Positions 34,418 through 37,806 of a stretch of 64,000 nt of DNA are shown piece by piece. Within the stretch, counting starts at the first letter, position 1; the number at the start of each line of letters is the position of its first letter. Position numbers and translations under genes: made by a program. The notes beneath the pieces were generated by a model. The model saw only the letters and a program-made list of their open reading frames with translations, was not told the origin of the DNA and searched no databases. Source of the DNA: Acidimicrobiales bacterium (GTDB lineage: Bacteria > Actinomycetota > Acidimicrobiia > Acidimicrobiales > RAAP-2); NCBI GenBank assembly GCA_035937905.1, contig DASZHK010000107.1, positions 536 to 64,535 on the forward strand. Reading direction: 5' to 3'.

Positions 34418-36049
34418 TCACTTGTGAAGTCCCAACTGAAGTCCCTTCACGATCAGCATGATGACCGCGACGACGAGGTAACCACGAAGGAGGTACATCC
34501 CGAAGAGTCGACCCCGCGACCACTTCGGTCGACTCAGAAGGCTGATCGACGGCATACGCCACGACGAGCGACTGCGCATGAGGTCCGGCGACATCGCCAC
34601 GCGACGCGAACGAGTTCGATAGAGCACGACGCCACTGACGACGTAGGCGACGAGCAGCGTGACGCCCAACGTGACCGCGAGGGTCCGGACGTTGATCGAG
34701 GTGAAGAGCGTCGTGATCATGAGGACCAGCGACATCATGAGCAGGATCGAGACGATGATGCTCGCGACGACGTTGAGCCACAGCTTGTTGATCCAGGGTC
34801 CGAGAACCTCTTTGTCGTTGCAAAGAAGTAGCAGAAAGACGGTGGCACTGGGCAGGAGCACGCCCGCCAGCGCCTGCACGCTCGTCGTGATGAGCCCGAG
34901 AGGCGCGTGAGGAATGATGACGATGCCCGCGGCCCCGATCACCATGGCCGAGAAGACGCTGTAGAAGAACTTGGCGTCGCGCCAACTGCGGTGCAAGGAG
35001 TGCTTGGCCCCGAACATGTCACCGAACGCGTAGGAGGTCGCGAGTGTCACCGAGGCGGCGCCGATGATCGACGCGTTCAAGAGGATGATCGCGAACAGTG
35101 TCCCGGCGGCCGTGCCCACGTACTTCTTCAAGCCGTTGGAGACCGCCCCCGCGTTCACGAAGTGTCCGGCTAGCGGCGTCTTGCCGAACGCGATGGCGAC
35201 GACCGCCATCAAAACCGCCGCGGCGAAGACCGTGACAATCGATCCAAGCACGGTGTCGAGGCGTTCGTAGTTGATCCACCGTGGCGTGATGCGCTTGTCG
35301 ACGATGTTCGACTGCTGAAAGAAGAGCTGCCACGGCGCCACGGTGGTACCCACGATGGCCATGATCAACAGGACGGACGTGGAGTTGAAACCACCTTTGA
35401 CCCCGGGCGTCACGAGACCATGAAGGAACGGTTGGATCGTTGGGTGACGAAAGACGGCGAGAGGGATGACGAGGAAGTTCGCGAAGATGAACACGAACAT
35501 GAATCGTTCCCACCGTCGGAAACTTCCGGACGCGGTCATCAAGATGAGTCCCAGCGCCGCGAGGGGCACCGAGATGTACTCACTGACGCCGAAGTAGCCG
35601 AGGGCCAGACTGACGCCGATGAACTCCGTGGCGATCGTGAGGAAGTTGAGTACGAAGAGGTCCCCCACCGAGAAGGCGCCCCAGAACTTCCCGAACCGTT
35701 CGTTGATCAGTCGGGCGTGACCGACACCCGTCACGGCACCCAGTCGGACCACCATCTCCTGATTGACGACCAGGACCGGGATCAGGAGCGGGAGCGTCCA
35801 GAGAAGCGTCAGACCGAAGTTCTGACCGGCCTGCGCGTACGTAGCGACGCCACCGGCGTCGTTGTCGCCCACCATGACGATGAGACCCGGTCCCATGATG
35901 GCGAGCATCGTGAGGAGGCGCGCTTTCAACGACGTGCGAGCGCCCACGTCGTGTTGACCAATGGTGCCAAAGGCTCCTTGGATGTCACCGACGTGTGCCT
36001 GGTCCAGCACCGCGGAGGCGGGATCGAGGTGGGGGTTCTTCTCAGCCAT
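34418..36049 (-). CDS. NRAMP-related divalent metal (probably Mg2+) transporter
   Basis: 'GDNDAGG' in place of DPGN, 'GTTVAPWQLFF'; start moved to ATG 36049. Confidence 0.85.
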   Translation of the reverse strand: MAEKNPHLDPASAVLDQAHVGDIQGAFGTIGQHDVGARTSLKARLLTMLAIMGPGLIVMVGDNDAGGVATYAQAGQNFGLTLLWTLPLLIPVLVVNQEMVVRLGAVTGVGHARLINERFGKFWGAFSVGDLFVLNFLTIATEFIGVSLALGYFGVSEYISVPLAALGLILMTASGSFRRWERFMFVFIFANFLVIPLAVFRHPTIQPFLHGLVTPGVKGGFNSTSVLLIMAIVGTTVAPWQLFFQQSNIVDKRITPRWINYERLDTVLGSIVTVFAAAVLMAVVAIAFGKTPLAGHFVNAGAVSNGLKKYVGTAAGTLFAIILLNASIIGAASVTLATSYAFGDMFGAKHSLHRSWRDAKFFYSVFSAMVIGAAGIVIIPHAPLGLITTSVQALAGVLLPSATVFLLLLCNDKEVLGPWINKLWLNVVASIIVSILLMMSLVLMITTLFTSINVRTLAVTLGVTLLVAYVVSGVVLYRTRSRRVAMSPDLMRSRSSWRMPSISLLSRPKWSRGRLFGMYLLRGYLVVAVIMLIVKGLQLGLHK

Positions 36050-36059
36050 GACGACGCCC

Positions 36060-36272
36060 CTAGCGGCCCCTCGCGCAACCATCGAAACGCGCACGAACGG
36101 CACTCGACGATCGGCGACAAGCCCACGCGGACGAAACGAGCGTCGCGTCGCTCACGTTGAACGCGGGCGACGTCGAGCGCGGCGGCGACGTCGAGAGTTG
36201 AGCGACGACGTGGCGCGTCTCGTTGGTCAACACGCGGTTGATTGGCGTTACTTTCGACTTGTTACGCTGCAC
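36060..36272 (-). CDS. small ORF (70 aa) preceding the NRAMP-like gene
   Basis: AAGGAGGT 6 nt before GTG; stop 10 nt before transporter ATG. Confidence 0.55.
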   Translation of the reverse strand: MQRNKSKVTPINRVLTNETRHVVAQLSTSPPRSTSPAFNVSDATLVSSAWACRRSSSAVRARFDGCARGR

Positions 36273-36428
36273 GCTCCACCTCCTTTCGTCTCGATGTGGT
36301 CGTTAAGCGAAACAACCACGCGGAGGCTAAAGGGGGCTAAGCGCTCTCCTCTAGGTACGGGCGAAGTTGTGTCGGTACGTCTGAAGCCTCACGGCTGGCA
36401 CTAGGGGGTTTCAGAGAGACCCCCTTAG
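36273..36428 (-). promoter_or_regulatory. structured leader, candidate metal-responsive riboswitch
   Basis: Several stems, GTGA tetraloop, anti-SD CCTCC and competing GAGGCT; see findings. Confidence 0.45.
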
Positions 36429-36454
36429 AACGTGACCTTGGTTGGCGCGGCTCA

Positions 36455-37714
36455 TTACTCCTCCACCGCGCCCATGCCGAACTCGGCGCGCCAGCCCTGG
36501 GGCAAGAGCTCCTCGAGTAGGTCATCCACTGTCACCACGCCGATCATCTTGGCGTGCTCGCTGTCGAGCACCGGCAACACGGTCAAGTTGAAGTCACTCA
36601 TTTTTCTTGAGACTTGGTGCAGGTCCCACTGCGGATGCACGTGGGCCATGTGCGTCTTCGCGACGCTGAGGGCCAACTCGTTGGGTCGCGCACGAACGAG
36701 TGGCGCGATGGAGGCGGCGCCGATGGGTTGACCGCTGTCGTCAAGAACGAAGACCGCCTGCAGTGATTCCGCAGGAACGCTCGAGGTTCGAATGGCGTCG
36801 AGCGCGTCGGCGACGGTCGCGGTCGCGGGAACGGAGACGAAGTCAGGGTTCATCATGCCGCCCGCCGTGTCCGCGTTGTACGAGAGAAGCTGGCGAACTT
36901 TGGTCTGTTGCATGGTCGGCAAGAGTTCGAGAATCGGCAGACGGCGCTCTTGATCGATCTCCGTGATGAGGTCCGCCGCGTTGTCCGGCTCCATTCGCGA
37001 CAAGAGTCGCGCGGCCTCGGCGTCGCTGCGCGACTCCAAGAACTCCAACTGGTGGGTCGTGTCGAGCTCTTCGAAGACGTCGGCCTCGAGCTCGCGGTCG
37101 AGTCCCACGGCCTCGATGATCTCCTCGCCCTCTTCGTGACTCGCCTGTTCGACGAGGTCGGCGATCTGGGCGGGGTGGAGCTTCGCGAGTTTGCGATACG
37201 GGATGCGAAGTCGCGCAGTCGGGACGTGCGAGACGAAGGGCTCAATAGAGGCGAAGTCCACGATGGCGTCGGTCTGCACGTGCGAACCGATCTTGTGACC
37301 GAGGACTCGACGAAGGAACGACCGCCGACCCGGGTCCACGCCGACGACTTCCCAGCGACCGTCGATCTCCGCGATCTCGATCTCGTTGGCGATGATGATG
37401 CGCCCACGCACCAAGTTGATGAGGTGGCGCGCGAGGAGGTCCTCGGCCAGCAAGAGCTCGCCCGGTCGACGCTCGAAACGACGAAGGTCGACCCTTCGCC
37501 CCTCGAAGGTCATGCGACCCTGAGCGAGACCACCGATCTTCTTTATCGAAACGAAGAGGTTGCGCCCTTCAATGCGAATGACGGCGCCCACGATGGGCGG
37601 GTGCGGATCGTCGCCGAGGCGCGCGACCAGGTCTTGGACGCGTCCGATTCTGTCACCGTCGGAGTCGAAGATCGGACGGCGCAGAAAAGTAGAGAGGTGC
37701 AGAATTTCGGTCAT
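36455..37714 (-). CDS. soluble PRC-barrel + MgtE N-domain + CBS-pair protein
   Basis: 'KLAKLHPAQIADLVE', 'DTAGGMMNPDF', 'IGVVTVDDLLE'; no MgtE TM domain. Confidence 0.88.
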   Translation of the reverse strand: MTEILHLSTFLRRPIFDSDGDRIGRVQDLVARLGDDPHPPIVGAVIRIEGRNLFVSIKKIGGLAQGRMTFEGRRVDLRRFERRPGELLLAEDLLARHLINLVRGRIIIANEIEIAEIDGRWEVVGVDPGRRSFLRRVLGHKIGSHVQTDAIVDFASIEPFVSHVPTARLRIPYRKLAKLHPAQIADLVEQASHEEGEEIIEAVGLDRELEADVFEELDTTHQLEFLESRSDAEAARLLSRMEPDNAADLITEIDQERRLPILELLPTMQQTKVRQLLSYNADTAGGMMNPDFVSVPATATVADALDAIRTSSVPAESLQAVFVLDDSGQPIGAASIAPLVRARPNELALSVAKTHMAHVHPQWDLHQVSRKMSDFNLTVLPVLDSEHAKMIGVVTVDDLLEELLPQGWRAEFGMGAVEE

Positions 37715-37806
37715 AGAAAGCCGTTAGAACGCCCTAAGGCTACCTCTTCGAAAGAAGCGTCTCCAGCGTCAATCGGTGAACGTCACGCGAACGAAGCGCG
37801 AAGAAT

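Follow-up and report, generated by a model that had tools for sequence, protein, structure and literature searches.

A candidate translational relay of three small open reading frames and two Shine-Dalgarno-hiding hairpins in the spacer ahead of an NRMT-type transporter gene of uncultured Acidimicrobiales

In the genome of an uncultured Acidimicrobiales bacterium (RAAP-2 in the GTDB lineage), a spacer of 405 nucleotides (nt) separates a gene encoding a soluble MgtE_N/CBS protein from the gene of an NRAMP-type transporter. The spacer lies in a stretch of 64,000 nt, hereafter the window (assembly GCA_035937905.1, contig DASZHK010000107.1, positions 536 to 64,535 of the forward strand), and the features described below are all on its minus strand. 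An earlier note on this DNA had proposed that the spacer contains a new metal riboswitch. We estimate at roughly 55% the probability that it is instead an intercistronic translational relay, made of three small open reading frames (ORFs) and two hairpins that hide Shine-Dalgarno (SD) sequences, and not a ligand-binding riboswitch; that the spacer is not a riboswitch is probable. In the 5′ to 3′ direction the three frames are mini-ORF1, ORF X and a 70-codon upstream ORF, uORF2. The ORFs, their junctions and the hairpins are supported by comparison of related loci and by folding, and we infer that the ORFs are translated, that ORF X starts at a CUG, that every step hinges on the preceding one and that Mg2+ serves as the signal.

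The small ORFs were compared in 38 loci, 35 of them distinct, from about eight lineages of uncultured Acidimicrobiales, all known from metagenome-assembled genomes (MAGs) and all belonging to one GTDB genus. Several related MAGs bear isolate labels that name palsa, bog or fen. Nucleotide conservation and the first hairpin, P1, were followed in an alignment of 34 leaders. Helix pairs were counted in a genus-only alignment of 19 sequences against slid partners, and the module bounded by the ORF X stop and the uORF2 GTG was folded for 14 lineage representatives, with 200 shuffles each. The genus-only alignment and the folding by lineage were used because MAFFT fails on the divergent lineages, which is also why RNAalifold over all 34 leaders recovers P1 only. 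Conservation of the spacer among same-genus genomes is limited to its first ~190 nt, at 71-90% identity. This conserved core overlaps mini-ORF1 and ORF X, both of which were absent from the earlier note. The P1 motif is single-copy in its own genome and, within 401 genomes of the order, was found in this GTDB genus only, apart from one doubtful match.

Mini-ORF1 (36411..36455, minus strand) is a frame of 14 codons (MSRANQGHVLRGSL) whose ATG shares its A with the end of the MgtE_N/CBS stop codon. Its SD is the terminal GGAGGAG of the MgtE_N/CBS gene, the last codons of which are GAG GAG. The frame ends at a UGA (36413-36411) which sits in the loop (CUGAAA) of P1. In 35 of 35 sequences a frame opened by an ATG or GTG, -5 to +8 nt from the stop of the MgtE_N/CBS gene, is closed at this loop UGA, while the other two frames to the same UGA score 0/35 and 2/35. 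The distance between the two stops takes the values 37, 38, 40, 41, 42, 44, 47 and 56 nt, representing all three phases, and the start codon shifts with the indels such that the frame is preserved every time (35/35). The mini-ORF1 peptide is basic. Its invariant 3′ codons GTT CTA AGG GGG (36411-36431) each make up 3-12% of the usage of their amino acid in the genome concerned, and these rare codons coincide with an SD-like sequence, UAAGGGGG.

Hairpin P1 (36404..36428, minus strand) pairs GGGGG at 36424-36420 with CCCCC at 36408-36404 and encloses the SD-like UAAGGGGG at 36427-36420 in its 5′ part. The earlier note had listed the same GGGGGT/ACCCCC stem, which is present and is flanked by CTA and TAG (36428-36401). 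The CCCCC arm corresponds to two proline codons of ORF X, and the loop carries CUGA, in which the start of ORF X overlaps the stop of mini-ORF1. P1 is invariant or nearly so in the 34 aligned leaders: its middle pair is G-C in 28, A-U in four (GGAGG/CCUCC, in two lineages) and G-U in two, and is broken in none. The hairpin is part of the minimum free energy (MFE) structure of all five leaders that were folded.

ORF X (36337..36414, minus strand) runs from a CUG (36414-36412) through 24 further codons (LKPPSASREASDVPTQLRPYLEESA) to a UAG (36339-36337), in the -1 frame relative to mini-ORF1. The CUG, which would be the start codon, is invariant and shares its UG with the mini-ORF1 stop (CUGA); 5 nt upstream lies the SD-like UAAGGGGG, replaced in some relatives by UAAGGAGG. 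In 35/35 sequences the frame stays open over 21-28 codons (mostly 25), and most of these sequences have no in-frame ATG, GTG or TTG upstream. The peptide begins L/M-K-P-P-S-T and is unconserved thereafter. All four letters occur at the third base of the second proline codon, and the AAA and AGT codons are also minority codons. The stop holds the same aligned position in nearly all sequences and varies among TAG, TAA and TGA, including among near-identical relatives (TAG in locus L032, TAA in L034, TGA in L036 and L037).

Other ways into the ORF X frame were considered. A -1 frameshift on the G-run is unlikely, because the GGAGG variants contain no G-run, and a +1 slip at AGG-AGG leads to a different frame. 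Entry from the frame of the MgtE_N/CBS gene is excluded, since the relative frame differs in L007, L019 and L050, and an upstream ATG at 36525 is unconserved.

The second SD-hiding structure, as predicted by folding, is a long hairpin (36278..36337, minus strand) reaching from the final G of the ORF X stop codon to the uORF2 SD. Its 5′ strand, GCC.CCUUU (36337-36329), starts at this G; its middle helix joins GCCUC (36327-36323) with GAGAC (36292-36288); its tip is a 9-bp stem, GTGGTTGTT (36319-36311) with AACGACCAC (36304-36296), which had been listed in the earlier note; and its 3′ strand, AAAGGAGGU (36286-36278), is the uORF2 SD. In the MFE structure of the window sequence this SD pairs with CCCCCUUU, directly 3′ of the ORF X stop codon: the G-CC.CCUUU after the stop pairs with AAAGG.GGU, and the CUC of CCTCC with the GAG of GAGAC. 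Folding thus agrees with the earlier proposal that the SD of the 70-codon ORF is predicted to be sequestered by a helix spanning the 9-bp stem. The window hairpin has a z-score of -2.5 relative to shuffled sequences, of which 3/200 are as stable.

A hairpin of this kind is predicted well beyond the window. In 12 of the 14 lineage representatives a single long hairpin begins 0-5 nt past the ORF X stop and takes up SD bases in its 3′ strand; in the two exceptions the hairpin stops short of the SD (L018) or leaves its GGAGG core free (L020, z +0.2). The z-score relative to shuffles lies between -1.4 and -8.4 in 12 representatives, with at most 3/200 shuffles as stable in 10, and the hairpin is built from widely differing sequences between lineages. 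The SD has an unpaired probability of 0.19 in the context of the full leader and of 0.28 in that of the local module; deleting the 12 nt that follow the stop, a manipulation that mimics a terminating ribosome, raises the latter value to 0.65. Pairing of the SD with the 20 nt after the stop amounts to 0.67 versus 0.40 when that stretch is shuffled, and is higher in 30/35 sequences. In the genus-only alignment, the helices P1, P2, P3b, the 9-bp stem and its 5-bp extension (GYYUC/GARAC) are 90% paired versus 34-55% for slid partners, and two-sided changes are seen in seven helix pairs, which include 4/5 pairs of the 5-bp extension, i.e., the middle helix. The fold of the whole spacer (z = -1.0) is uninformative.

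The third frame, uORF2 (36060..36272, minus strand), is the 70-codon ORF of the earlier note, whose description of it was accurate. Its SD AAGGAGGT (36285-36278) precedes a GTG (36272-36270), and its TAG (36062-36060) ends 10 nt before the transporter ATG at 36049. Among the 23 uORF-bearing loci, from about eight lineages, its length ranges from 24 to 74 codons, and only about the first ten residues are conserved; it has no Pfam match. The distance of its stop from the transporter start nevertheless stays between -8 and +11 nt in 23/23 loci, and the two overlap as TGATG in four lineages, in line with the earlier suggestion that a signal is relayed through this ORF.

The conserved SD and GTG open such a short ORF, ending at the NRAMP start, in the window and seven other lineages. 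In many same-genus relatives (L003-L020, aligned to 36272-36240) the gene opened directly by this SD and GTG is that of a different NRMT-type NRAMP, ~55% identical to that of the window, and comparison of the sequences suggests that a gene replacement was fused onto the uORF2 start. The first ~8 residues of this other NRAMP (VQREHSKE...) resemble the start of the window uORF2. At the downstream end (36030-36062), the GGGG after the uORF2 UAG can pair with the CCCC of NRAMP codons 6-7 and enclose the ATG, a layout like that of P1, which may be due to chance since the fold is not above shuffles (z = +1.2).

In the proposed relay, ribosomes leaving the MgtE_N/CBS gene, or binding its terminal GGAGGAG, would translate mini-ORF1. 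A ribosome at the mini-ORF1 UGA, in the loop of P1, would melt the hairpin and expose both the SD-like UAAGGGGG and the CUG of ORF X. ORF X would then be translated up to its stop, which abuts the 5′ base of the long hairpin whose 3′ strand is the uORF2 SD. There, a ribosome terminating on ORF X would cover the anti-SD, and uORF2 could initiate as a consequence. The uORF2 stop at the NRAMP start would finally hand ribosomes to the transporter gene. Hence, the amount of NRMT transporter made per transcript of the sensor-like gene would be set by the relay. The input would most likely be Mg2+, which could influence how stable the two SD-hiding hairpins are, or how ribosomes behave on the rare-codon mini-ORF1 and the Pro-Pro start of ORF X.

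Several observations weigh against this interpretation. None of the relatives has an ATG, GTG or TTG at the position of the ORF X CUG, and CUG is a weak and rare start codon in bacteria. In GC-rich DNA a frame often stays open for 25 codons (probability ~0.5, a rough estimate from stop-codon frequencies), so the case for ORF X rests on its in-phase, variable stop. P1 consists of five G-C pairs only, its segment is not unusually stable compared to shuffles (z -1.9 to +1.4), and its evidence of co-change is thin because the changes in the 3′ arm are synonymous proline codons. ORF X and mini-ORF1 also lack the acidic residues on which mgtQ and MgtL depend. Finally, all sequences compared are related and come from one GTDB genus of uncultured bacteria, hence the counts overstate their independence.

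The earlier note had found by eye no match to the cores of the M-box, yybP-ykoY or NiCo, and covariance-model searches point the same way. No Rfam family matches the spacer at gathering score, and no metal riboswitch matches it even at E≤10. Over 35950-36600, the search of Rfam 15 at E≤10 gave no relevant match to yybP-ykoY, NiCo, Mg_sensor or any other family, the only hits being two sub-threshold chance matches inside uORF2 (mir-2147 and Mcr7), and at gathering score the whole window contains two tRNAs only. Since, in addition, all the elements listed in the note are present, its observation as such is confirmed. The M-box (RF00380, gathering score 44 bits) is absent from the window, from the spacer at E≤10 and from the genome concerned. 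This negative is meaningful because the identical search finds M-boxes of 109-130 bits in five orthologous loci (L094:2563-2739, L096:2557-2727, L070:2528-2710, L083:2572-2736 and L069:1-174), upstream of NRAMP orthologues 69-74% identical to that of the window. In L094 and L096 the M-box is intercistronic, between the MgtE_N/CBS and NRAMP genes, in the position of the window spacer.

The switch itself, as envisaged in the earlier note, is not supported. The CCTCC of its AGCCTCC element (present at 36328-36322) was thought to act as an anti-SD by pairing with GGAGG; in relatives it reads TCTCC, TTTCG, TTTCC and others, and the pairing, found in 83% of cells only by allowing G-U, shows no two-sided change and equals shuffles. 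The anti-anti-SD pairing, in which GAGGCT would capture AGCCTC, is found in 63% of cells, below shuffles. The GNRA hairpin AGCC-GTGA-GGCT, here P2 (36385..36396, minus strand, read as 36396-36385), does exist inside ORF X. Its GCC/GGC stem is retained within the genus, with two pairs changed on both sides, and its loop reads GTGA, GTAT, GCGA, CAAC, TGCG or other sequences in relatives and is thus not conserved as GNRA. P2 was also considered as a universal hairpin, which is not supported, as the region folds like shuffles across lineages (mean z ~0) and is significant at genus level only. The whole interior of ORF X, from P1 to the SD hairpin, likewise folds no better than shuffles (mean z ~0). 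The conserved cis-regulatory leader ahead of an NRAMP-type transporter is supported; the failed pairings, the unconserved GNRA loop and the shuffle-like interior leave no sign of a ligand-binding aptamer.

Accordingly, it is unlikely that the conserved 190 nt fold as the aptamer of a new Mg2+-binding riboswitch that toggles an anti-SD/SD helix, with the small ORFs incidental. Such a riboswitch would account for a conserved leader with an SD-sequestering helix before a magnesium-type transporter, at the place occupied by the M-box in orthologous loci, and the blocks GUUCUAAGGGGG...CUGAAACCCCC.AGUAC and, within the genus, CGACACAACUUCGC show more nucleotide conservation than the peptides would require. 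It is opposed by the Rfam result at E≤10, by the shuffle-like fold from P1 to the SD hairpin and the z of -1.0 for the whole spacer, and by the lack of conservation of the proposed anti-anti-SD. Moreover, outside the genus core the stretch retains its frame and stop, not its sequence or helices, and the element occurs as a single copy, at one locus and within one genus, whereas known classes of riboswitch typically have a wider distribution. The nucleotide conservation in excess of peptide needs, the unremarkable thermodynamics of the P1 segment and the scarcity of stop codons in GC-rich DNA would also fit chance open frames around a protein-binding or RNA-processing site, for example for the CBS protein or an RNase. 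We regard this as very improbable, because the mini-ORF1 start tracks the frame shifts in 35/35 sequences, the ORF X stop holds its place while switching among three stop codons and the uORF2 stop stays at the NRAMP start although the ORF takes seven different lengths, each of which patterns would arise by chance in a few percent of cases per lineage (a rough estimate).

Translation of the ORFs could also serve no sensing at all. The ORFs would then merely pass ribosomes along and fix a low ratio of transporter to sensor, uORF2 being partly the scar of a gene replacement. The peptides are indeed unconserved, and the first ~10 codons of the window-clade uORF2 resemble the N-terminus of the other NRAMP type that uses the same SD and GTG, which points to a history of recombination. 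Constitutive coupling of this sort is nonetheless rather doubtful in view of the three-step arrangement with two SD-hiding hairpins retained across about eight lineages, which is more elaborate than simple coupling needs, as stop/start overlaps such as TGATG alone would suffice. The rare codons and invariant Pro-Pro at the key junction, and the regulated M-box held by orthologous operons at the same position, argue against it as well. Transcriptional attenuation as in mgtL and corL, where ORF occupancy would decide on Rho-dependent or hairpin termination before the transporter, has the precedent of enterobacterial Mg2+ transporter leader ORFs, which act in this way (PMC4072509), and the 213-nt uORF2 region, with its unconserved peptide, might provide a Rho entry site if left untranslated. 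A scan found no intrinsic terminator on the coding strand, however, and the conserved structures hide SDs and do not form terminator/antiterminator pairs. A downstream attenuator would also find no room in the genus relatives, where the transporter frame opens directly at the SD and GTG, and attenuation is therefore quite unlikely.

The flanking genes bear on the nature of the signal. The transporter gene (34418..36049, minus strand, ATG at 36049) encodes 543 amino acids with a Pfam Nramp match at 1.2e-72. Helix 1 reads DAGG (DxxG) and helix 6 reads TTVA (TxxA), followed by P-W where classical NRAMPs have P-H, a His-to-Trp change. The DxxG/TxxA signature, which defines the NRMT clade, and this change both match that clade as described in PMC8806188, and it is to this clade that the window protein is assigned by its motifs (DxxG with TxxA/T, not DxxN with AxxM). 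Its best solved relative is EleNRMT (7QIA, 3.6e-62), as compared to ~1e-13 for structures of Mn2+ transporters (MntH). From its sequence, the transporter thus appears to be of the Mg2+ type; the assignment of its substrate is tentative, since, as Shin et al. caution, an A. capsulatum outgroup relative with an adjacent MgtE-like fragment transports Mn2+ (PMC4072509). The upstream gene (36455..37714, minus strand) encodes a soluble protein of 419 amino acids, an 'MgtE-like fragment' without pore domain, in which Pfam identifies MgtE_N (1.8e-19) and CBS (1.1e-15) and no MgtE membrane domain. The pair therefore has the adjacent, co-oriented gene for a poreless MgtE cytoplasmic domain that marks an operon of mgtE-like fragment and nrmT. 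In the 92 nt before the MgtE_N/CBS gene (37715-37806), a simple scan revealed no clear SD at the ATG and no consensus promoter.

Shin et al. 2014 described the pairing of an 'MgtE-like fragment' gene with nrmT and the presence of M-boxes before such operons (PMC4072509). The M-boxes found here in orthologous loci support magnesium control of the window pair without proving it, and, together with the NRMT signature, make Mg2+ a reasonable guess for the signal. It is possible, at clearly less than even odds, that the relay is a ribosome-based Mg2+ sensor which has replaced the M-box at the same intercistronic site. Low Mg2+ would then loosen the SD-hiding hairpins or alter the dwelling of ribosomes on the rare-codon mini-ORF1 and the CUG-K-P-P start of ORF X, and the three-step cascade would magnify a slight change until the NRMT importer is switched on or off.

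The order of MgtE_N/CBS gene, long spacer and NRAMP gene was found in 94 of 100 loci of uncultured Acidimicrobiales retrieved as tblastn matches, with spacers of 98-547 nt. A set of 56 more distant loci (within L027-L100) have no P1 motif; in these, mini-ORFs of other kinds begin where the MgtE_N/CBS gene stops. About half of them have an ORF of 15-22 codons of the M-T-V-F-R-R-R-R-P-A... type. In about eight, an ATG or a nearby upstream start leads into (M)-E-P-P-H/D-T in an ORF of 22-48 codons, resembling the K-P-P-S-T of ORF X. The genome of the window also encodes a second NRAMP, outside the window (G000:C125, L102:850-960), whose helix-1 motif is DAGA, and a third, 5 kb from the second (L104). 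The region upstream of the second is AT-richer and holds TTGACT-N17-TATAAT, an SD (GAGGAGGTGA) and a 17-codon ORF (MRNDPPSIWRAPSLTNS), which also reads D-P-P-S (compare K-P-P-S in ORF X). This leader had no match in 25 relatives.

The nearest known mechanism appears, by analogy, to be that of mgtQ in Salmonella, an 8-codon ORF between mgtC and mgtB whose translation frees the sequestered ribosome-binding site (RBS) of mgtB (Choi et al. 2021, PMC8092293). In both cases small ORFs occupy the intercistronic spacer before a Mg2+ transporter gene and the downstream RBS is locked in a stem-loop, which in the window is a predicted structure starting at the ORF X stop. However, the two are unrelated in sequence, the window has three ORFs in series where mgtQ is one, and the CUG start of ORF X lies within its own SD-hiding hairpin. 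The window peptides are basic or contain Pro-Pro, in contrast to the ribosome-destabilising Asp2/Glu5 of mgtQ, and the transporter is an NRMT and not a P-type ATPase, in a different phylum. Because neither the sequence nor the acidic residues of mgtQ are shared, the window element is not a member of the mgtQ family, and the likeness is one of outline at most.

The M-box (ykoK, RF00380) resembles the window element in lying immediately upstream of an NRMT gene and in its presumed task, which is to limit the transporter when Mg2+ is plentiful. It differs in mechanism: the window has no M-box or aptamer-like fold and its control would be ribosome-driven and translational, while the M-box acts by termination through ion-induced compaction of RNA. 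In enterobacteria, the MgtL/mgtA leader, mgtP, mgtM and corL are likewise proline-containing leader ORFs before Mg2+ transporter genes, in which the progress of the ribosome decides expression. Unlike the window element, which is intercistronic and hides SDs, they are 5′ leaders controlling transcription elongation; the peptides are dissimilar, and Mg_sensor is not among the Rfam matches at E≤10. The same gene pair has been treated in studies of operons of mgtE-like fragment and nrmT (PMC4072509) and of EleNRMT (Ramanadane et al. 2022, PMC8806188), which deal with the proteins and with M-box control; in neither is a relay of small ORFs between the genes reported.

Small-ORF control of Mg2+ transporters is known in detail only from enterobacteria (mgtL, mgtP/M, mgtQ and corL), and riboswitch control from the M-box. 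For annotation, the spacer indicates that a long spacer of a GC-rich MAG may look 'empty' and yet be tiled by mini-ORFs, presumably translated, that gene callers overlook. The relay would exemplify the serial unmasking of RBSs over three ORFs, and ORF X a conserved CUG start overlapping a stop codon. If the relay is indeed a Mg2+ sensor, it would be the first multi-ORF relay of such a kind and would imply regulated CUG initiation by termination-reinitiation in Actinomycetota. Within one bacterial order, the spacer of orthologous two-gene operons holds an M-box in some cases and the putative small-ORF relay in others, a natural swap that makes the choice between an RNA sensor and a ribosome sensor directly testable. 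The relay also bears on how the still uncharacterised MgtE-like partner is balanced against the NRMT transporter.

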